A DNA stretch of 11,816 nt, taken from NCBI GenBank assembly GCA_043754515.1, contig JAYUUO010000148.1:1-11816 (forward strand). Direction: 5' to 3'. Positions 1 through 11,816 of this stretch are shown one piece after another. The position numbers and the translations under genes are program-made. The notes below the pieces were generated by a model. It did not search any database and had not been told where the DNA came from. It saw only the letters and a list, made by a program, of their open reading frames with translations. How positions within the stretch are numbered: position 1 is the first letter of the stretch; every line of letters begins with the position of its first letter. This stretch comes from Armatimonadota bacterium (GTDB lineage: Bacteria > Armatimonadota > Armatimonadia > Armatimonadales > Armatimonadaceae).

Positions 1-183
1 TGATACCCGGCGAGGGGCAATCAAGAACAACGACAACGTATGGGGCGGAAGTAACTAGCCTGCCCGGCACCATTGTGCGCCGGGTCTCACGAGTAGCGCG
101 AGGCAAGCTGTATTATTTTATTTTGAGACATACCAGGCTTTGCGATCCGTCTTATGGCAAGATGAAACTATGAAAAATCTCAC

Positions 184-376: not shown

Positions 377-1708
377 ATGAATCGCATGTACAAAATGCGC
401 CTGATCGGTCTCACTGCCCTCGTGCTGATGGTGTCCGCCTCGTCCCACGCGACCCCGGTGCTTAACAGCCGCCCCGGAGCCGCCTATACCGTCTATTTGG
501 ACTTCGATGGGTTCGCGTTCAGCGGCAACTGGGGGACAGGCTCCACGCTCACCCCGGGAAATACCGCCGCTTACACCGGGAACGATGCCCAGAAGAGTGA
601 TGTCTGGGCGCGGATCTCGGAAAAATATTCGGCGTTTAACATAAACGTGACCACGGTTGACCCGGCGGTCGCCGCGCAACAGGCTGGTACATCACTGGCA
701 CGGCAGAACTACTACGATGCCACCGCGAAACTGATGCACACCGTCATCGGTGGGAACGGCTCCTGGGTAGGCGGTGGTGGTATCTCATATGTAGGGGTCA
801 CACAAAACGCCCAAGCCGGCTCGAACGGCTATCACACGGATTTTTGTTTCGCGGCACAGGCACCTAATAACACTCAATTCGTCGCTGAAGCAAGTGCACA
901 CGAGAATGGTCACGGTTTCTCCCTGAATCACCAGGGCGATTCTGGCGTTGGCGTCACCAACTTCAGCACCGAGTACAGTTCCAACAACGGGGCGGTCGGG
1001 AACGGCTCCTACGCGCCGGTAATGGGGAACTCGTACAGCACCCAACGCGGCACGTGGCGCACCGGTACCTACTACAACAGCCTCGCTAAGCCGCCGACGA
1101 CGACGAATCAGAATGACATCACGAACCTGCTCTCCAACACGGGGATGAGCCTCGTCAATGACGGTATCGGTCATTCCTTCGTGACAGCAACAGTGCTGCC
1201 GCTCATCGGTACAACGGTCGACTCACTAGCCGCGAAGGGTGTCATCACCCCCTCGTTCGTGAATGCCGCCAATCCTATCGGCGTCGGCAACTACACGAAA
1301 GACTACTTCAAGTTTACGATGAGCCTGAACGGAACAGTGTCCCTCACAGTGGCTGATGGGGCCGACTGGCTCACCCCCGGTACCACGGCGGCGGGCACCA
1401 CACTCCGCTCGAAGCTGAACATCTACAAATCGGGCGATCTAATTAACCCGTTCGCGTTCGCCTCCGAATCGGCTGACACGCTCTCCGAAACGTTCACGGG
1501 ATTGCTGACATCGGGAGATTACATCGCGGAAGTAACGAGCTTCGGCGGTTATGCTTCGACCTACGATACCAGCGCGAAATACTACGACATGGGTTCTTAT
1601 GTCATGCGGGGTTCCATCGCGGTCGTACCGGAGCCGGGCACCTACGCGCTACTAAGCCTCGGACTTCTCGGTCTACTGGCCAAACGACGCGTCAAGTCGC
1701 AAAGCTAA
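377..1708 (+). CDS. Secreted PEP-CTERM-sorted zinc metalloprotease (metzincin-like) with probable C-terminal beta-sandwich (PPC-like) domain
   Basis: RBS GGAGG at 363-367; signal peptide (MRLIGLTALVLMVSASSHA); LNSRPGA..VYLDFDG N-terminal motif; zinc motif HENGHGFSLNH (899-931); Met-turn-like APVMG; C-terminal VPEP, hydrophobic helix and basic tail (VPEPGTYALLSLGLLGLLAKRR). Confidence 0.9.
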   Translation: MNRMYKMRLIGLTALVLMVSASSHATPVLNSRPGAAYTVYLDFDGFAFSGNWGTGSTLTPGNTAAYTGNDAQKSDVWARISEKYSAFNINVTTVDPAVAAQQAGTSLARQNYYDATAKLMHTVIGGNGSWVGGGGISYVGVTQNAQAGSNGYHTDFCFAAQAPNNTQFVAEASAHENGHGFSLNHQGDSGVGVTNFSTEYSSNNGAVGNGSYAPVMGNSYSTQRGTWRTGTYYNSLAKPPTTTNQNDITNLLSNTGMSLVNDGIGHSFVTATVLPLIGTTVDSLAAKGVITPSFVNAANPIGVGNYTKDYFKFTMSLNGTVSLTVADGADWLTPGTTAAGTTLRSKLNIYKSGDLINPFAFASESADTLSETFTGLLTSGDYIAEVTSFGGYASTYDTSAKYYDMGSYVMRGSIAVVPEPGTYALLSLGLLGLLAKRRVKSQS

Positions 1709-1763: not shown

Positions 1764-3323
1764 CTACACGCGGTCGAGGCGGCGGCGGAGCGCGGGGTAG
1801 TCTATCTTCGCGTTGTGCCGCTTGTCCACTGGTAGCGCATCCCAGATGCGTACCTCGTCCAGCATCGCCCAGGCGAGCGCGGCTTTCAGCGCGGCGGTAT
1901 TGACCCCCTCCCCTTCCACGAGCAGGAGACGCTTGCCGCCATGCGAAACTAAGGCGGCGCGGCGTACGGCGGGGTCGCGCCGCGCCGCGCACTCCACCGC
2001 GAATGGGTACACGATTCCGCGCTCGTCGTTGATGCGCGCCCCACAACGACCGAGTAGCCAAAGCCGCCCCGTTGCGTCGAGGTAGCCGCTGTCGCCAGTG
2101 CGGTGCCAGATCACGCCATCTACGCGGAACTTGGTCTCTGTGTCCCCCTCCCCGTTCAGGTAGCCAGGTAGCACATGCGCCCCGCTTACCACAATCTCGC
2201 CCGGCGTGTTCGGTGGCAGGGCGAGCGCGGCGAATGCGCTTGCGGTAAACGGTCCGATTGGTGTTCCCCACGCGTCAGGCAATATGCGCAACGTGATGCA
2301 GTCCACCGGGTGCCCGGCGAGCAGACCTTTCCCATCACCCATCGCCACGCCGTCCGCGACGCTCATCTCGGCGCGGGCGATATGCGCGATCGGTTCGGCC
2401 TCGGTCGAACCGTAAACGGCGACTACTTCCGCGCCGGGTGCGGCTGCATCCGTGAGTCGTGCCAGCAGGTCGGGGAACACGGGCGCGCCGCCGGTGTGTA
2501 TCTGCCGCAGACCGGGGAGCGTGCCCGCGTCTTCCAACAGCCGCTCGAAAAAGGCGGGTGAGGCGGCGGCGCGGGTCGGGCGCAGACGCCGCATCTGCTC
2601 GCGGATCGGCGCGACGTTCACCGCGCCGGGGCGGCGCAGGTCCCCGGCGGGGATGATGCTGGTCACGCCCGAGGCGAGGTTCGCCAGTACAAAGATCGGG
2701 AGCGTCGCGAGGTCAATATCGCCAGGTGATAGATGGATGCTGTCAACGAGAGCATGGTGCTGCGCCGCGAGCAGGCCGTGCGTCCGCACCGCCGCCTTGG
2801 GCCGACCCGTGGAGCCGCTGGTGAACGTCAGCAGGGCGGGTGTTTCGGCATCGGCAACGAAAACCGTGTCGTGGGGAGCCAATCGCTCGGAGCGGTTTAA
2901 ATTTACCGCGCTGGGCACGGGCAAACCGCCGATGGAAATGTTACAGGGGATGCGGCGAAGGGCGGCGATAGTCAGCCGTAACAGGTGCGCCTTCACAGTG
3001 CCGATTAACGCATCGGGCGGGCGCAACGCGCAACATGCCTCGATATGCTCCCGCCCCGCCGACGGGTCGAGAAACATCGCGACGAGTCCAAGACGAAACA
3101 GCGCGAACAGAACGATGTATAACTCCAGCGACATTGGGACCAGGACTAGAACGGTCTGTCCCGGTCGCAAGCCTCTGTCGCGTAGCAACGCCGCGAGCCG
3201 TGCCGAGCGATCGCCGAGCTGCGCGAACGTGAGCGTTATGTCACGCCCACCCACCGTTTCGATCAGTGCCGTGGCACCGGGGCGGGACGCCACCTGCTCC
3301 AGGAGCAGATTTGCGGTGTTCAT
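1764..3323 (-). CDS. AMP-dependent synthetase/ligase (ANL superfamily), OleC-like clade
   Basis: Motifs FTSGSTGRPK, YGSTEAEP, WHRTGD and C-terminal PVDKRHNAKID, which resembles the PVDIRHNAKI end of OleC-type enzymes; ATGA overlap with the upstream GNAT stop. Confidence 0.88.
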   Translation of the reverse strand: MNTANLLLEQVASRPGATALIETVGGRDITLTFAQLGDRSARLAALLRDRGLRPGQTVLVLVPMSLELYIVLFALFRLGLVAMFLDPSAGREHIEACCALRPPDALIGTVKAHLLRLTIAALRRIPCNISIGGLPVPSAVNLNRSERLAPHDTVFVADAETPALLTFTSGSTGRPKAAVRTHGLLAAQHHALVDSIHLSPGDIDLATLPIFVLANLASGVTSIIPAGDLRRPGAVNVAPIREQMRRLRPTRAAASPAFFERLLEDAGTLPGLRQIHTGGAPVFPDLLARLTDAAAPGAEVVAVYGSTEAEPIAHIARAEMSVADGVAMGDGKGLLAGHPVDCITLRILPDAWGTPIGPFTASAFAALALPPNTPGEIVVSGAHVLPGYLNGEGDTETKFRVDGVIWHRTGDSGYLDATGRLWLLGRCGARINDERGIVYPFAVECAARRDPAVRRAALVSHGGKRLLLVEGEGVNTAALKAALAWAMLDEVRIWDALPVDKRHNAKIDYPALRRRLDRV

Positions 3324-4291
3324 AGCTCCCGCCCGTAGAGTGTATATCGCCGCAACGTCTTGGTGCCTCCATACACGATGCTCAGGTTACGCGACGCGTT
3401 GGAATCGTGCATCAGCGCGTGAACGGCGCGGGTGAACCCCGCGTCCCGCGCGGCGGATTGGCAGCGGTCTAGGAGGAGCATCCCCAGCCCTGCCCACTGC
3501 CGTCCGGGTAACACGGCGGTGGTTTTCACGATGAATGTTCGGGACGGCTCCCCGCGCTTCGCCTCCTCAAGGTCGGGGAGCGCGAACAAAAACCCCGCGA
3601 GCGTGCCGTCCTCCGTCCGCGCCATGAGACTGAGTTCTGGGCGCAAGTACGGCACAATGCGCCGGTATGAGTCGAAAAACTCCGACTCTGGGAGCGGCGT
3701 GTAGAGGAAGTTGTCGCGGAATCCTATAACGGACAGTTTGTAAATGGCGCGCAGTTCGTCCTCAATGGACTCGGCGCGAACCGGGCTAAGGGTCACGCCC
3801 GCATCTGCCATCCGCACGGCGACCTTCTCCGCTCGTTCGTCTCCATATGTCAGGTCGGTCGCGATCCGCGACGAGTAAGTCGCCAGCGGCGCGAACCCGG
3901 CGTCGGCAAAGTGACCAGGGTAGGAATGTGGGTTGGTCGGCTCCAAGAAGAACGGCGGCTCGGCGGGAGCAGTAATGTCTTCGTCGCCCGTGACGAGCCG
4001 GTATCGCCGCCAGGTGTTGCCGTCCATCGGTCCGATCGCCGTATCACATCCGTGTCGGGCGAGTTCGGCGAGTGCGTGTTCGAGTAGCGGCGCGGCGGCA
4101 TCGTCCCGGAATGATTCGTACTGGCCGAGAATACCAACCCGCCTACCGGAGAGCGCGGGCAGATTGCCCGACCACCACAAGGCGCAACGGGCGACGACCG
4201 CGCCGTCATGGGTTGCGATAACAGCGGCGTCGGCGTCCGGGAGCAGAGCGAACGACGCGTCGGGCGCGGTGACAGTGTAAGTTATGATCAT
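3320..4291 (-). CDS. GNAT-fold N-acyltransferase (YghO-like tandem GNAT)
   Basis: GPMDGNTWRRYR and FFLEPTNPHSYP motifs; C-terminal acyl-CoA-binding-like KTTAVLPGRQWAGLGMLL and HALMHDSNAS. Start placed at ATG 4291 (GGAAGG upstream); ATG 4363, which overlaps the kinase stop (TGATG), is an alternative. Confidence 0.75.
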   Translation of the reverse strand: MIITYTVTAPDASFALLPDADAAVIATHDGAVVARCALWWSGNLPALSGRRVGILGQYESFRDDAAAPLLEHALAELARHGCDTAIGPMDGNTWRRYRLVTGDEDITAPAEPPFFLEPTNPHSYPGHFADAGFAPLATYSSRIATDLTYGDERAEKVAVRMADAGVTLSPVRAESIEDELRAIYKLSVIGFRDNFLYTPLPESEFFDSYRRIVPYLRPELSLMARTEDGTLAGFLFALPDLEEAKRGEPSRTFIVKTTAVLPGRQWAGLGMLLLDRCQSAARDAGFTRAVHALMHDSNASRNLSIVYGGTKTLRRYTLYGREL

Positions 4292-4362
4292 TGGTTTACC
4301 TTCCATCGCGTCTAAAGATTGCACCCGGCCCGCCGCGCTTTTTTCAACCGCGAGGCGTGTCA

Positions 4363-5742
4363 TCAGGGAGAAATCCCCCGCGCCACGAGCGCGGACCCGA
4401 GGGCGACTCCCGCCTGTAGTATCCAGCGGCGCGAGGAGCCGCGTTTCCGGGCGGGCGTCGCGTCGTCGTCCGGCCATTCGGCGAAACGGGCACCCGTTAT
4501 CCCGACCGCGATTCCGACCGGCGCGAGGACGAGTACCGTCCACGGCGATTCGCTGCTACCACCGACGAATTTACTGATGACGTAGTACGGCACCAGCATG
4601 GCTACCGATGCTTGTAGGAAGGACCGCGCGATCACCCATTTGCCTTCGGCGTCCCGAAAAGTGCCGCGCAACCGAATGACACCGATGATCGCCAGATGCG
4701 CGGCGAACGAGACCGTGTACGGGAGAAGGAAGTCGGGGCGGTGGTACGTCGCCGCGAGAAAAAGCCAGACTATGCCGACCCCCGTCGCCCGCAACACGTC
4801 GCGGATGTCGTGAGTGCGGCTGGTACCGTCCCGGTTCTCGCGGGGGAAAAGCCACGCGTATAGCGCGAACAGCGTGATCGGCGCGGGGAGCCACTGCCAG
4901 CCGCCCAGAGTCCACGCCAGGAACGCGACCAAGGCCGCGCCGAGTGCCGCGCTGTCGTTCAGGGTCGTGCGCCGCCGATATAGCACCGCGAACGCGACCA
5001 GCATCAGCGTCACGCCGAGGCGCACGCTTAAATCAGATACGCCGAGCGGGCGGAAGGCGCGTAGCAGAAGGAGTGTGCCAAGCGGGATGAACAGGTTGTC
5101 GAGTCCGTTCCACGCCACTGCCTCCACGAGCATCATGAGTAACCCGAGAATAATGCCGATGAGAAGGGATTCGGCGCGGCCCGTGCCGGTAGCAAGTAGT
5201 AGCGGGACGTGGGTGCTCAAGAACGCGACCAGAAAAAAGCCGAGTGACCCTTCGAGACTCTTCTGCCCCTCGCCAGTTTCGTACCGCAGGGACCCGTAGC
5301 GCACACCGATTAGTGCCGCGACCGCGTCCCCGAGCGCGAGCAGTAGCACCGGAATCCCGAACATCACCAGGTCGCCGTGCGCGAAGTAGAAGAGCGCGGC
5401 GACGCCGACCGGGAAGTAGACCTCGCCGAGCGAGTCGCGGGACACGCCGTCGAGCACGCCGCCGAACCGCGCCCGTAGCAACGAGGATTGACGGAGTGCA
5501 AGTAGGCCCACTGACGCGACGACGCCGAGGGCGATCACAGGCACGGGGTCGCTACCAAATAGGCGCGGGAACGTCAGCGTGACCGCGCCCATGCCGACGT
5601 GGAGCAACTTGCGCAGGAGCTCGGGATGAAGTTTCTGGCGTTTCCCGAGGGCGCGAAGCCCCATCATCAGCGCGCCGAAGACGGCCAGCACGAGCAGCAC
5701 TGCCGGGATCGGCGGCAACAGTGGCACCGCGATCCAGCTCAC
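4363..5742 (-). CDS. Polytopic membrane protein: phytol/dolichol kinase-like (CTP-dependent isoprenoid alcohol kinase / cytidylyltransferase family) N-half plus degenerate DUF92-like C-half
   Basis: RKLLHVG, GEVYFPVG, GDAVAALIGVRYG...KSLEGS and GLDNLFIP motifs; many hydrophobic helices; GTG start overlaps upstream TGA (GTGA) with GAGGAG RBS at 5751-5756. Confidence 0.8.
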   Translation of the reverse strand: MSWIAVPLLPPIPAVLLVLAVFGALMMGLRALGKRQKLHPELLRKLLHVGMGAVTLTFPRLFGSDPVPVIALGVVASVGLLALRQSSLLRARFGGVLDGVSRDSLGEVYFPVGVAALFYFAHGDLVMFGIPVLLLALGDAVAALIGVRYGSLRYETGEGQKSLEGSLGFFLVAFLSTHVPLLLATGTGRAESLLIGIILGLLMMLVEAVAWNGLDNLFIPLGTLLLLRAFRPLGVSDLSVRLGVTLMLVAFAVLYRRRTTLNDSAALGAALVAFLAWTLGGWQWLPAPITLFALYAWLFPRENRDGTSRTHDIRDVLRATGVGIVWLFLAATYHRPDFLLPYTVSFAAHLAIIGVIRLRGTFRDAEGKWVIARSFLQASVAMLVPYYVISKFVGGSSESPWTVLVLAPVGIAVGITGARFAEWPDDDATPARKRGSSRRWILQAGVALGSALVARGISP

Positions 5743-6872
5743 GGTAGCCGCTCCTCGACAATAAACGCGCTGTAAAAGAATGCCTTGTCTGCCAGGTGCA
5801 GGTCGGACGCGAGCGGCTCGACGGGGCGCAGGATTCCCGCCATGGCTTCGGGGCGGCGGCGCGGGGCGAGCATGTTCCAGTACGCCAGCCGTGCGCCGGG
5901 CCGCGCGGACCCCGCGAGTCGCCGGAGCAATATCTCGTAATTTTCGGGCGACATATACTCGAAGATGTCGCTCAGATTGAATCGGTCAATCGCCGCGTCA
6001 CCCACTTCCTCCAGGAACGACTCTATGGAGCCGACACGTAACTCCAGCGCACCCAGATTATTCCGGATGGCGTCGAAGTTCTCCGGGCGGAGCGCGAAAG
6101 GGAGGGCTTCCGGGGCGTGAGTGCCTGTCAGAACCCAGCGCAAGTACGGGTTCGTCGCCGGGTCCAGACGGGTGACGGCGTGACGGGTTCGCGCGAGAAT
6201 CCTACCCGCGATACTGCCCTCGACATACTGGAAGAACGCTGGGTCGCGCCCGAGCCGCCCCATCACGAAGCGTGAGAAGAACAGTCGGAACAACAGACGC
6301 CAGCGGAACGTGTCCCACTCGCGGGCGTAGAACCGCTCGCGCTCGTCCGGGGTTCCGCCATGCAGAAGCCGCCGGGCGGCTCGCTTGTCATGCACCCAGG
6401 GCAGAATCTTCTCACGGAACAGCGCGAAGTAGCGCTCGAACTTGCCCGCGCCGCCGATGCCCGCGCCTATTTCGGCGGGGCGTGCGTCCCAGAACCGGCT
6501 CGTGTCGTCGTCAAGTAGTGGCCGGCACCGCCCGTACAGCGCGACGCGCTCCCCGGCGGACGCGGGCGCGGACCCCATCAGCGCGAGCAGTTCCGGATGC
6601 TCCAGAGTCCGGTATATGGCGACGCGTAGCGCGGCACAGGCGACCTGCGCCGCGCTCAGATCCAGCGCGACCACGCGCTTCGGGCAGCGTGTAAGCATCG
6701 CCAGCGCGTTATCGCCCGCCGAACAGATCGAGACGCACGTGTCGCCGGGTTGAATGTCAAGGCCCGCCAGGAGAACGTCGGCGTCCTCCCAGCACTGGGC
6801 GTAGCGTATAGCGGAGAAGTCCGCCCGCGCGGTGACTTCGGACGCTCCTGTCGGGCGCGTAATTGCTGTCAC
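5739..6872 (-). CDS. DUF3419 family protein, BtaA-like SAM-dependent 3-amino-3-carboxypropyl transferase
   Basis: IRYAQCWEDADVL, ICSAGDNAL, DLSAAQ, GKFERYF, NPYLRW, FNLSDIFEYM and YWN motifs. Start placed at GTG 6872 behind GAGGA (6877-6881); ATG 6923 is the alternative. Confidence 0.85.
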   Translation of the reverse strand: MTAITRPTGASEVTARADFSAIRYAQCWEDADVLLAGLDIQPGDTCVSICSAGDNALAMLTRCPKRVVALDLSAAQVACAALRVAIYRTLEHPELLALMGSAPASAGERVALYGRCRPLLDDDTSRFWDARPAEIGAGIGGAGKFERYFALFREKILPWVHDKRAARRLLHGGTPDERERFYAREWDTFRWRLLFRLFFSRFVMGRLGRDPAFFQYVEGSIAGRILARTRHAVTRLDPATNPYLRWVLTGTHAPEALPFALRPENFDAIRNNLGALELRVGSIESFLEEVGDAAIDRFNLSDIFEYMSPENYEILLRRLAGSARPGARLAYWNMLAPRRRPEAMAGILRPVEPLASDLHLADKAFFYSAFIVEERLP

Positions 6873-6978
6873 GGGTTCCTCAAAGTTGCCAGAGTAGATG
6901 GTTTCGGTGGCGCATTCGCGCATCCTCGCCGCGAGGCCGGTCCTAGTATATCCGAAAGAAAAATCGTCGCGCTTACAC

Positions 6979-7097: not shown

Positions 7098-7985
7098 ATG
7101 ATCCTCCGCATAGATAAGATTGCCGTTGACCTGCCAAAACCCAAACACCCGTCGCCGGACGGTGCCGCCGCCCTGCAAGAACTGCTCGGTGGGAAGTTCG
7201 GCGAAATGTCCACCCTGATGAACTACACGTTCCAATTGTTCAACTTCCGGGGGCGTGACAAACTGCGCCCGTACTATGACCTGATTGCCAACATCGCCGC
7301 CGAGGAATACAGCCATGTCGAGACGATTTCGTACGCGATCAACATGCTCCTGACAGGTGTTACCACGCGTGGTAATAACCCCGAGGCGACCCCTCTTGCA
7401 GACGTGATCCACGCGCGCAACTCGTACCACTACATCGCTAGCGATCAGGCCGCGTTGCCTGTAGACTCGATGGGCAACTTCTGGACCGGCCAGAACGTGT
7501 TTTCGAGCGGCAACCTGAAGCTCGATTTGCTACACAACTTCTTCCTGGAGTGCGGTGCGCGCGCCAACAAGATGCGCGTGTACGAGATGGTGGATGACCC
7601 AACGGCGCGTGCCGCAGTCGGCTACCTGCTGGTGCGCGGCGGGGTGCATGTCGTCGCCTACGCCCATGCGCTCGAAGAGCTGTGCGGCGTTGACCTGAAA
7701 GGCATCTTCCCGATCCCGGACCTCAGCAACAAGAAGTTCCCCGAAGCCGCGAAGCTCGAGGAGCAGGGTCTGCACCGGATCATGTATCGCTAGAGCCCGA
7801 GTGACTACACGGAGATCGGCAAAATCTGGAAGGGCGCGCACCCCGAGGACGGTTCGGAACTGATCGTGAGCGACACTATCCCCGAAGGGTTTACGCCGCC
7901 GAAGCTCGACGAGGAGCCGCAAATGAACGCGCCGGGGATTGACATGGACATGTTCAACGCCGCTAAGAAACTCGTTTTAGGCTAG
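7098..7985 (+). pseudogene. Manganese catalase (ferritin-like di-Mn, Thermus-type) with in-frame TAG at 7791-7793; pseudogene, sequence error or readthrough
   Basis: MILRIDKI..., LLGGKFGEMST, EEYSH, FFLECGAR and RGGVH ligand motifs; RBS AGGA before ATG 7098. The frame continues after TAG as SPSDYTEIGKIWKGAHPEDGSELIV...KKLVLG* (TAG 7983-7985), matching the recalled C-terminus of Thermus-type Mn catalases (YRFSPEDY..IWKG..PEDG). Confidence 0.88.
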
Positions 7986-7998
7986 TCCTTTCGTACCC

Positions 7999-8038
7999 GA
8001 GACGCCCCCGACTGGCCCGCCAGTCGAGGGCGTTTCTC
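7999..8038 (+). terminator. Intrinsic terminator-like hairpin after the Mn catalase
   Basis: gagacgccc-c-cgactggc / gccagtcg-a-gggcgtttc inverted repeat with one C-A mismatch, starting 13 nt after the 7985 stop. Its position supports 7985 as the ancestral gene end. Confidence 0.7.
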
Positions 8039-8207
8039 ATGCTACTGTTTCCACTCTACTGAAGCGCGGCGTACCTCCGTCACCGCATTTATTCACTCGT
8101 GCGAGTAAGTGGCACACACGGTCGCGTTCGTGCGCACCAAAATCGAGTGGTCGGTTTACCGCAGTGCGATCAACACCGGTGGCACGAATAATGCTCCCAC
8201 CCATATC

Positions 8208-11200
8208 ATGGAATTGCGTATTCGCCTTCTTCAAGGCTACGATGGCGAGCCGAATCGAGTACGCGTTACTCTACAGCGTCTTGATGTCGTCAGCGTCGCG
8301 GAAGGGTTATGGTTGTTTACGCTGGACGCTGCCGAGCGCGGCGACCTGCGCTGGTATCTAGAGGAGTACCCGCGGTATCCTTCGAGTGGGTTCGATGCCC
8401 GCGCTACGCGGGCCGAGACGTGGCTCCACCGCCGTGGCGCGGAACTCTTCGACTCGGTGTTCGCCTGCGAACGTCGGCTGGCTCTCTATGACGCCGTCGC
8501 GCCCCGCCTCGCCGACACCCGTATCGTAATAGAGACTGCGCAGGATGACTTCGCTGCTATGAGTCTGCCGTGGGAGATGTTGCGCGACGGACGAGACGGC
8601 GGCGGTACTCTCGCGCGGGACGCGGGTGCTTTCGTGCGTAGTCAGCCGGATCTGCCTGACGTCCGTCCCACGGAGTCGGCTAACAGTCTGAACATTTTAC
8701 TCGTGATCAGCAGACCAGGCGGCGTTGACGACATCCCATTTTTTGCAGTGGTTCGCCCCCTACTGAACCTTGCCCGCGAAAATGGTTCGCGAGTGCGCGT
8801 GGACGTACTACGTCCGCCGACCCTCGCACTCTTGGGGCGCGTTCTCGCGGACAATCCCGGTTTTTACCATGTGGTTCATTTCGACGGTCATGGCACCTTC
8901 GCGCCGGGGGGTGAGCACGGCGTGTATCATGCGGCGGCACGCGAGGGGTATCTATCATTCGAGGACCGGAGCGGGAATGCCGCCTACACATCCGGCATGG
9001 AAGTGCGTCACGCGCTCATGCGGGGCGGCGGCGTCCCGGTGATGGTACTGAACGTATGTCAGTCCGGCATGGCGTGATCCGACGTCCTCGCACCATCCGT
9101 CGGTATGCGCCTGTTGCGCGGCGGTGTTCATGGCGTCCTGACGATGTCGTATTCGGTTTACGTCCCCACAGCGGCGCGATTCACGACGCGGTTGTACCAG
9201 GGTCTACTCAATGGCGAATCGCTCGGCCAGGCGACGCACGCGGCGCGTGAAGATCTGGCGAGTAAATCAATGCTCCCCTCCCCGACCGGCAACTCTCCGG
9301 TTCATGATTGGATAGTGCCCGTCCTCTTCGAGGGTGAGCCGGGCAAACCCCTCATCGCCGCATCATCATCGCCTGACGTCGCTCCGCCCTTACAAGTACC
9401 ACGCAAAGGCCGGTTCGTGGGGCGTGATGGACTGTTCCTGAACGTAGAGCGGGCTTGTCGCGGGTACAATCTGTTCCTCTTCAATGGCATGATCGGCATC
9501 GGGAAGTCGGCTATGGCTGACGCTTTTGCTCTCTGGCTCGGTACGACGAACGGTTTATGGCGCGGTGTCGGTAGCCGCGCCTTCTCTTTCGCGTGGGAAA
9601 ATCTGTCGCTGGAACACCTCGTTAACACAATAGGCCAGGAAAGCCGCGACGCATTGAAGGAGCGCTATGGCGTGTTATGGGAGTGTCTGCCTTCGGACAT
9701 TCGGGAGAATCCGACGGGTGAGAATCTGTCCCGCTTGCAGGTTGCGCAACGCTTCTTGCGCGAATGTGCCTGCGAGGTCATCATAGACGGTGTGGATCAC
9801 GGGGGCGCTCTGTCGGAAAACATCCAGGAGGAGTGGCAACTTTTTTTCCGTGGCATTCAGGGCGGGCAGAGCCGGTTCTTCCTTACCGGGAGGCGCGCCA
9901 CCATGCCATTCAAAGCCAAAGTCAGCGGCGTGCGTGTGCAAGAACTCAAGCAGAGTGACGCGCTTGCTCTTGCGGAGAATATTCGCGGCGAGCGTCTGCC
10001 CAGCACCCCCGAAATGGGCACGATGATGGGGCGGCTTGGTGGCAATCCTCTCATGCTGGAGACGTTCGTCCCGGAGCTCGAACGCCTGTCGCCATCGCAA
10101 ATGGCGGATGGCCTCCGGGTTGGTGACATAGTCGTTTCAGACCCCCTCCGTGCCGCGCGGCTGACCAATGCGTTGAACACCGGGTTTGTTACTTTGTCAC
10201 ACGAGGAGCAGGAGAGGCTGACAGTTCTGGGGGGCTTCGCTCACTTCGTTTCGGTAGACGCGCTCACCCGGTTGAGCACACTGCCGGACGCGCCGGTGTT
10301 TATCCGGGGGGTGGTTCGTGAGGAATGGGAGCGGGTCCTGCAAAGCGCGGAGCATGCCGGGCTAGTTGAAGCCGTGGTCGAAAACGACTGGTACCACCTC
10401 CCGGTCGCGCTCCCGTGGTTTTTCCGGGAGGGCTTGGGCTCACTTCTAGCGGCGTCGCCAGACGCGCTGAGGGACGCCTTGATCACGGTGTATGCCGACT
10501 ATCCCGATCCGTCTCGGGAGAAGCAGGGTGTGCCCACGTCGGTGGTGCTATCACTCATTGACTGGGAGCATGACAACATGCTGTCCGCGTTCGGGGCAAC
10601 GGTGGAGCGGACGCGCTGGCACGACGCGGCTAAGATCTTAGGATTTCTATCGCGCTGTTGCAGAGAATCGGGGGACTGGGACACGTTAGGGGCGTTCACA
10701 GTCCGACTTCGTGCCGGAGTTTGTGACTCGGATGGCGATACCTTGCCGGGGCTTGAAGCGGCATGGGGACTCCTGATGGTCCAGGAAGCGGGACTCGCGG
10801 GCCACCGGTGCGACTTCGTCGCCGAGTCGTCCATCAGCGACCTCCTCATGGCGCATTTCGAGCGGAACGGTGACCGGGAGCGGTTGGCGTTGATCTTGCA
10901 CGGTTGCGGCGAGCGAGTACGCGAGCAGTGCGATTACGAACGTGCGTCGGAGCTTCTAGAACGCAGCCTCGCCCTTCGCATCAGCCTGAGTGACGCGGCA
11001 GGTATCGCGGCGACACAGTTCGCTCTCGGAAAAGTGGCGCACTATCAGAGACTTTTCGACGGAGCGGGGGAGTGGTACCACCAATGTTCCAATGGGTTCA
11101 GCCGATGTGGCGATCTACGTGGTCAGGGGGATACGGCACATCAGTTAGGCTTGATTGCCGAGGAGCGTTTGCAAGGAGGCGTCGCGGAACGGTATTACCG

Positions 11201-11816
11201 GCAGAGCATCGCACTCAAGGAGCGATCAGGGGATGGGCGCGGCAAAGCCGCCACACTGTTCCGAATCGGAGAGCTGGCGAAGCGGCTACGAGCGTGGAAC
11301 GACGCAGAGACCGCGTTCCGTGATAGCCTCGCGCTCAGTGATCAGTATGAGGGCGATACACCAGACCGCGGGCACACGCTCCGCGCACTCTCTTCCGTGG
11401 CTCAGGAACGGCAACAATGGGACGAGGCAGAGCGATGGTTGGGGCAAGCCATGACCATGGCACGGGAGAAGGCGGATACGGGACTGGAAGCGGATGCGCT
11501 GAGAGATTTCGGCTCACTCGCACGGGCGAAGGGCGACTGGAGCGGCGCGGAGTCGTTCCTTCGCAAAAGCCTCGCGCTATCGGAGGTTCGTGGTGACGAA
11601 CACGGGCGGGGTGATACGCTACACGCTCTCTCCCTCCTCGCCGAGGCGTGCGACAACATAACTTCGGCTATCGGGTATGGGGAGCGCGCCCTCACCTTGT
11701 TCCTCATGAGTGACGCCCCGCGACAATGCGCGTTGGTACGAGAATCGCTGACGCGTTTCGGAGCCGCGCGAGGGCAACAGTCGAAACAGCCAGCGGATAG
11801 GGTCCCTACCCCGTTT
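8208..11816 (+). CDS. CHAT (caspase-like peptidase)-STAND/NB-ARC-like ATPase-TPR protein; in-frame TGA at 9075-9077; 3' end outside the window
   Basis: Manual translation: LRWYLEEY, LPWEML, VISRP, catalytic HFDGHG (8877-8894) and LNVCQSG (Cys 9057-9059). After TGA the same frame gives the CHAT C-terminus (GVLTMSYSV...LYQGL..GESLGQA...DWIVPVLF), FVGR, Walker A GMIGIGKS (9486-9509), Walker B EVIIDGVD, FLTGR, LGGNPL and TPRs (~10880-11750, e.g. GDTAHQLGLIAEE...AERYYRQSIALKE). No further stop to 11816. GTG 8109 is an alternative start. Confidence 0.88.

Follow-up and report, generated by a model that had tools for sequence, protein, structure and literature searches.

A broken CHAT-STAND-TPR protease gene in an Armatimonadota bacterium and small hydrophobic-helix proteins encoded beside its relatives

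The caspase-STAND protein KrAvs12 cuts EACC1 into a membrane-damaging fragment, and Csx29 cuts the co-encoded protein Csx30, as described in 10.1101/2025.11.14.688446; the EACC1 family was defined in PMC7159879. Here we describe a CHAT-STAND-TPR gene of an Armatimonadota bacterium. The gene reaches the end of a window of 11,816 nucleotides, which is the whole contig JAYUUO010000148.1 (G000:C148) of assembly GCA_043754515.1 (G000, 313 contigs, 92.7% complete). It encodes a separase/Csx29-type CHAT protease, an Apaf-1-like STAND ATPase and six to seven TPRs, an architecture that is itself already known, and it is interrupted by an in-frame TGA. The locus is very probably a recently inactivated, strain-specific pseudogene. 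We regard it as somewhat probable, by analogy, that it is the broken sensor-protease of an uncharacterised defence family that would combine a protease with a cleavable membrane effector. Alone, a broken copy of a known architecture matters little. The new lead is the unnamed partner families encoded beside the relatives, not the window gene; among them may be the substrates of a large bacterial class of CHAT-NLR proteases.

Architecture of the gene and the stop within its protease

Read from the ATG at 8208, the frame runs for 1203 codons up to the contig end and contains a single stop. The ATG lines up with the homolog starts in the alignment, and, to judge from where the homologs end, the 3' part probably lacks just a few codons. 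The closest intact homologs have 1210 and 1215 residues and are 43-44% identical. An earlier, sequence-only reading had assumed a single frame of at least 1203 codons and explained the absence of everything after 9077 from the list of open reading frames (ORFs) by the frame running off the window. Codon 290 is a TGA, at which ORF 8109-9077 closes, and the second piece (9105-11816) alone runs off the contig end; the earlier account overlooked the stop within the protease and the decay of this copy.

Its domain assignment was confirmed. With the stop read through as X, Pfam CHAT scored 50.7 bits against a cut-off of 24 (E 2.3e-13), and the proposed His/Cys dyad is nearly invariant (Table 1); we take His228 to be catalytic from what is established for caspase folds. 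The STAND motifs that had been named (FVGR, Walker A and B, GNPL) are present, and FVGRD, K433, D527, R562 and GNPL are kept in 119-120 of 120 homologs. The profile check that had been suggested succeeded for CHAT and for TPR_12 (E 1.7e-24, again with X); in the ATPase region no NB-ARC, NACHT or nSTAND profile came above its cut-off in the Pfam scan, and AAA_16 stayed at 20.9 bits, below its cut-off of 32.6. The estimate of roughly seven TPRs stands for six 40-residue repeats scored with a custom profile, the first with just 0.8 bits, and the seventh is visible in the alignment alone.

A fold model of residues 1-831, built from 121 sequences, was confident (predicted local distance difference test, pLDDT, 91.3; predicted template modelling score 0.91). 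Residues 1-380 were aligned with VIA-align to the TPR-CHAT protein Csx29 (8d9g) with a Z of 24.3 and a root-mean-square deviation of 3.3 over 300 aligned residues, to separase (5fby) with a Z of 23.0 and to SAVED-CHAT with a Z of 19.0. The middle region matched the STAND proteins PH0952 and a resistosome (Z 11.9-12.4). The top Foldseek matches of the model were Apaf-1, NRC resistosomes, Csx29 and CED-4. Domains, motifs, fold model and Foldseek all bear out the proposed NLR-like identity of the effector-STAND-TPR type. A sequence search of the PDB gave TPR matches alone among the best 60 of 137, and folding the N-terminal fragment as a single sequence gave an unusable model (pLDDT 31.9).

The TGA sits inside the CHAT fold, ahead of the strands and helices that the model places at residues 298-375. 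Since it cuts off residues 291-380, no single translated product holds the complete caspase-haemoglobinase fold. For the strain comparison at the stop, 4 of 22 listed sequencing runs were compared with the window; no RNA run was listed for this stretch. A separately assembled contig of run X3 (depth 11) showed zero differences over 7472-9493, TGA included, and runs X1 and X2 contain all sampled words of the window; X1-X3 may be the source runs of this genome and hence not independent samples. In runs X5 and X6, which come from two other studies (of ice and glacier), bases 9075 and 9077 are different and the codon is one for Arg; each run shows this in one contig at depth 3-5. Arg is also found at this position in P0002 and P0003, the two closest full-length homologs. 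The TGA is almost certainly real DNA in the sampled strain, and intact alleles exist in the ice and glacier strains.

Residue 283 beside the catalytic Cys is Val in the window and Ala in the other strains; all 120 homologs have Ala (118) or Ser there. T312 and T798 of the window allele are likewise Ala in the other strains and in most homologs (29/30 and 25/30). The stop within the fold, the sense codon in X5 and X6 and these differences at near-invariant residues are together read as a decaying pseudogene. Other deviations mark the whole subclade of the window gene (P0001-P0003): its TPRs have diverged (no repeat scores above 46 bits, and most P0007 repeats reach 80-89), its Walker B is altered and its winged-helix His is absent. 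These traits are shared by the intact members and therefore predate the stop. Judged by the alignment, the loss of the His, which has a role in NLRs, is a subclade trait, as it is also missing from the intact P0002 and P0003. Breakage is found across the family. Seven of 80 genome loci are in pieces, with two tandem paralog pairs set aside, and the plasmid loci that were opened are split as well (3/3).

Two other explanations of the TGA were weighed against the pseudogene. An assembly error, with the gene intact in the sampled population, would fit a fragmented assembly with several in-frame stops, but it is scarcely credible: the X3 contig agrees at depth 11, X1 and X2 carry the sampled words (with the caveat on source runs), and two bases of the codon set it apart from the intact allele, amid many other strain differences. 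Hardly more probable is a functional stop, with a restart at the ATG at 9105 that would give a genetically split protease, or with read-through as a variant. The stop does fall in the loop that follows the catalytic Cys, the site at which caspases are cut into their large and small subunits, and an in-frame ATG follows 28 nt on, with a hairpin after the TGA. Among the strain differences listed, a small and incomplete table with eight rows missing, the ratio of amino-acid-changing to silent ones is 7:1 in CHAT and 3:7 elsewhere (Fisher p 0.025). But no clear ribosome-binding site precedes this ATG, neither the ATG nor the hairpin has a listed difference in the intact alleles, the immediate neighbour of the catalytic Cys is altered, and the genome has further in-frame stops, including those in uvrB and lon. 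The hairpin is probably incidental. Recoding was also considered and rejected, as no selenocysteine tRNA was found among 77 and TGA is a common terminator in the genome; for pyrrolysine, neither pylS nor pylB came above the cut-off in the genome. A promoter and terminator scan of the window was uninformative.

Table 1. Coordinates of the gene, its motifs and the neighbouring features in the window
Feature	Position	Strand	Remark
CHAT-STAND-TPR gene	8208..11816	+	one in-frame stop; reaches contig end, probably near natural C-terminus
CHAT protease module, separase/Csx29-like	8208..9347	+	residues 1-380; Pfam CHAT and structural alignment
His228 of catalytic dyad	8889..8891	+	motif HFDGHG; His in 119/120 homologs
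Catalytic Cys284	9057..9059	+	motif LNVCQS; Cys in 120/120 homologs
In-frame TGA, codon 290	9075..9077	+	six codons after catalytic Cys; strain-specific nonsense allele
6-bp hairpin just after stop	9079..9103	+	directly before in-frame ATG
STAND NTPase module	9405..10442	+	residues ~400-745: FVGRD, Walker A, Walker B, sensor Arg, GNPL, winged helix
Walker A, K433	9486-9509	+	STAND motif
Walker B Asp, D527	9786-9788	+	STAND motif
Sensor Arg, R562	9891-9893	+	STAND motif
GNPL (GxP motif)	10041-10052	+	STAND motif
Winged-helix Pro	10401..10403	+	His in 115/120 homologs; Pro in window allele
Six to seven diverged 40-residue TPR repeats	10884..11717	+	putative sensor; Pfam, custom profile, alignment
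Manganese catalase	7098-7985	+	in-frame TAG at 7791-7793
Four-gene operon	1764-6923	-	DUF3419 protein, 459-residue membrane protein without Pfam match, GNAT-type protein, acyl-CoA ligase
PEP-CTERM protein	377-1708	+	reprolysin-like metallopeptidase motif
Repeat at assembly break	1-104		99% identical to start of contig C1

The family and the small genes beside its members

The family is large: of 8000 candidates that were scored, 864 proteins reached E 1e-10. Among titled genomic matches an Armatimonadota record ranks first, and the others include cyanobacteria, actinobacteria and acidobacteria. Within the phylum of the window the CHAT part is patchy and was present in 9 of 401 genomes. The CHAT family was matched by 13 records of a plasmid collection, and no phage record matched the CHAT part. 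The patchy presence and the plasmid carriage were counted for a role in conflict.

For the discovery of partners, 783 flanking ORFs from 86 homologous loci were clustered and then inspected. The clustering yielded one dominant unknown family, present in 31 loci, and inspection added two further types; a fourth is found at L125, L122 and probably L103. The partners are proteins of 120-150 residues with a hydrophobic helix. One of the three modelled types is carried by 40 of 80 genome loci (31, 5 and 4) and by 39 of the 63 loci with at least 600 nt of downstream DNA, counts that are inflated by seeding and by kinship, the 80 loci being dominated by related cyanobacteria.

The A3 type has 118 representatives, and its five matches among the 80 loci are all seeds of its profile. 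As a check independent of these counts, it was found in the phylum in 4 of 401 genomes, all within the nine that have the protease; one of these four was a seed. It overlaps the end of the CHAT-STAND-TPR gene in G314 and follows a paralog of that gene in G002, and in G071 A3 partner and protease lie on different contigs. Just before the hydrophobic helix, the A3 linker has a Tyr or Phe near residue 39 in 52 of 88 rows. For the other two types, 4 of 4 plasmid-collection matches lie within ~6 kb of a CHAT match. In P0158 (515 residues) the CHAT domain of the family is naturally fused to the hydrophobic C-terminal half of the partner, with no STAND or TPR; this fusion could alternatively stem from a deletion.

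No credible Pfam or NCBIfam family was found for the partners, apart from a partial L7/L12 match on one, and in profile scans none of the types matched EACC1. The Atlas places them in unnamed clusters, with a score of 0.79 to an EACC1 cluster that is a lead only. Of 15 members of the cyanobacterial type, 10 match the PADLOC profile PDC-M35B (best E 4.3e-9), and the M35A profile matches trypsin-like proteases; one partner type therefore occurs with two unrelated protease classes. In the open-access literature no description of a CHAT-STAND-TPR gene paired with a small partner gene was found. A predicted complex of the P0022 CHAT domain (residues 1-385) with its own partner scored 0.10, controls were not folded, and it was not used as evidence.

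Some cyanobacterial loci carry further genes at this place. At L096, L104 and L108 (e.g. L108:11936-14896), a caspase-nSTAND1-trypsin gene and two unknown genes adjoin the CHAT-STAND-TPR gene. In 12 of the 86 loci (e.g. L067:4986-5764) a PIN-domain gene, preceded by a small gene so that the two resemble a toxin-antitoxin pair, lies between the CHAT-STAND-TPR gene and the partner.

Proposed mechanism and its alternatives

Because of the analogy with Avs proteins and with KrAvs12/EACC1, we propose a mechanism of five steps for the family, which we hold to be slightly more probable than its opposite. The TPR array would bind a trigger, most likely a phage protein, and the STAND domain would exchange its nucleotide and oligomerise. 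The clustering would switch on the N-terminal CHAT protease, which would then cut the small co-encoded protein of 120-150 residues in the linker ahead of its hydrophobic helix. The released fragment would damage the membrane and lead to cell death or arrest. Going further, the clade may be the sensor half of an undescribed two-gene death system that crosses phyla, in which at least four small proteins would serve as interchangeable, cleavage-activated membrane effectors, one of them also with a trypsin-like protease; to this wider proposal we give not quite an even chance.

Several findings weigh against the defence family with a cleavable effector. A substrate encoded just downstream had been expected in the sequence-only reading; for the family this agrees with the 39 of 63 loci. 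At the window locus no such gene is seen: the sequence stops with the contig, all partner queries of G000 came back empty, and G002:C100 (45%), the nearest intact ortholog, lies between a regulator-like gene and a downstream PhyH, with no partner beside it. The remaining 24 of the 63 loci with enough downstream DNA are without the three modelled types, the partner counts are inflated and the A3 matches are seeds as stated above, and hhalign gave no demonstrable homology among the three types (probability 0.3-6%). The nucleotide switch of the window subclade may, from its motifs, differ from that of other clades. A defence island, the lack of which had been named beforehand as one point against a defence role, was not found: upstream of the gene in the window, as around its G002 ortholog, the neighbours are metabolic, and PADLOC matched only generic TPR and CHAT domains in the window.

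The missing partners would be explained if the subclade P0001-P0003 were a partner-independent STAND protease that, once triggered, cuts a host or phage protein, the small neighbour elsewhere being optional, an anchor or an inhibitor. An effector-less, caspase-like protease with phage protection is reported in 10.1101/2025.11.14.688446, and EACC1 was initially interpreted as a sensor by Kaur et al. (PMC7159879). We consider this rather unlikely, since the DNA past the contig end is unread and an X3 contig continues for ~2.9 kb past the window end, the partner behind the G002 paralog could act in trans, and both the fusion of a partner to CHAT and the occurrence of a partner with another class of protease speak for a substrate. 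The surroundings, with no defence island, would also suit a non-defence protease for signalling or development, comparable to HetF, a CHAT protein, or to AfsR and other STAND regulators. Profiles of HetF and AfsR matched weakly, far below cut-off, and many homologs come from filamentous cyanobacteria and actinobacteria. A profile scan detected no DNA-binding domain, however, and the presence in 9 of 401 genomes, the frequent breakage, the plasmid carriage and the varying neighbours misfit a core developmental gene, so that we find this explanation improbable, even more so than partner independence.

If the protease with a cleavable membrane effector is the correct explanation, the relatives in cyanobacteria, actinobacteria and Armatimonadota would provide membrane effectors of a new kind that are gated by a protease. 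On the wider proposal of a two-gene death system, new effector families would join the list of EACC1, Pepco and gasdermin. It is plausible, and open to test, that the partner families make up a further variety of the death modules that proteases control in bacteria. The broken allele of the window and the intact alleles of the ice and glacier strains are a small example of putative immune-gene turnover among close kin.

Genomic surroundings and comparison with known systems

The neighbours in the window are a manganese catalase, a four-gene operon of lipid type and a PEP-CTERM peptidase. For the acyl-CoA ligase of the operon, PRK09274 and olefin beta-lactone synthetase were nearest, both below cut-off. 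CRISPR genes are absent from the window. Neither a gasdermin nor Cas7-11/Csx30 was seen among the window genes or the scanned neighbour clusters, and the genome was not searched for these families. A BLAST of the window against its own genome gave no continuation past the contig end, a metagenome scan for DNA beyond it gave 6 loci, none of this species, and the exact 3'-end pattern had 0 matches in viral contigs.

Where the catalase has its TAG, the residue is Phe, Trp or His in 10 of 10 homologs. X5 and X6 have the TAG in common with the window, with no difference at this codon, and 5 of 6 strain differences after it are silent (p about 0.007 if neutral), a hint of amber read-through or of recombination in this tract. 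At G000:C138:11927-11999 (-) and L160:428-500 there is an atypical tRNA whose anticodon is CUA (Rfam tRNA 37.2 bits against 29). It lies between ORFs of a mobile-looking region and was found in none of 24 relatives. It is a possible amber suppressor and cannot explain the TGA. The sole uvrB (G000:C112:34990) and one lon (G000:C266:21941) also have an in-frame TAG, with no stop in four relatives; taken with the CUA tRNA, these stops suggest that amber alleles are tolerated or that the mutation load is raised. The genome has 156 candidates for in-frame stops, of which 7 were bridged by a homolog in a small database. TAG accounts for 71/1194, TAA for 54/680 and TGA for 31/991, so TAG is not clearly enriched.

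The known systems resemble the family in different parts. The NB-ARC proteins Apaf-1, CED-4 and plant NLRs are matched by Foldseek with E values of 6.7e-9 to 1e-7 at 13-16% identity; their caspase is recruited whereas here it is fused, and the sensor here is a TPR array. Csx29 (TPR-CHAT, Craspase) and SAVED-CHAT come closest in structure to residues 1-380; they have no STAND domain, and their activation is by a CRISPR complex or by cyclic oligoadenylate. The candidate system PDC-M35 of PADLOC (10.1101/2024.01.29.577857, whose main text does not mention it) has in M35B a homolog of the cyanobacterial partner type; it differs in that M35A resembles trypsin-like proteases, and M35B was not found in G000.

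The 'all-in-one' bacterial NLRs with an N-terminal CHAT (10.1101/2020.01.06.895854) and the Avs-type STAND sensors (PMC13581612) have the same effector-STAND-TPR order with conserved nucleotide-binding motifs, and differ from the window copy in that the latter is broken. No named Avs profile matched in PADLOC 2.0.0 of 2023, which predates the newer Avs families of PMC13581612. Seven supplementary files of PMC13581612 gave no match to CHAT or caspase; the clade described here may be among the 589 clades of that paper.

The pair of EACC1 and caspase-Avs12 shares with the family a caspase-fold protease that is N-terminal to a STAND sensor and, at 40 of the 80 loci, stands beside a small hydrophobic-helix protein. 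It differs in the protease, which here is of the separase/Csx29-type CHAT; the EACC1-associated caspase model gave no match to P0034 (13 bits against a cut-off of 140). No EACC1 match was obtained for the partners, which are candidate effectors and usually lie downstream, whereas EACC1 lies upstream. In EACC1 (~120 residues) cleavage near residue 49 frees the membrane-damaging C-terminal part, and in the A3 partner the Tyr or Phe near residue 39 stands in a variable linker.

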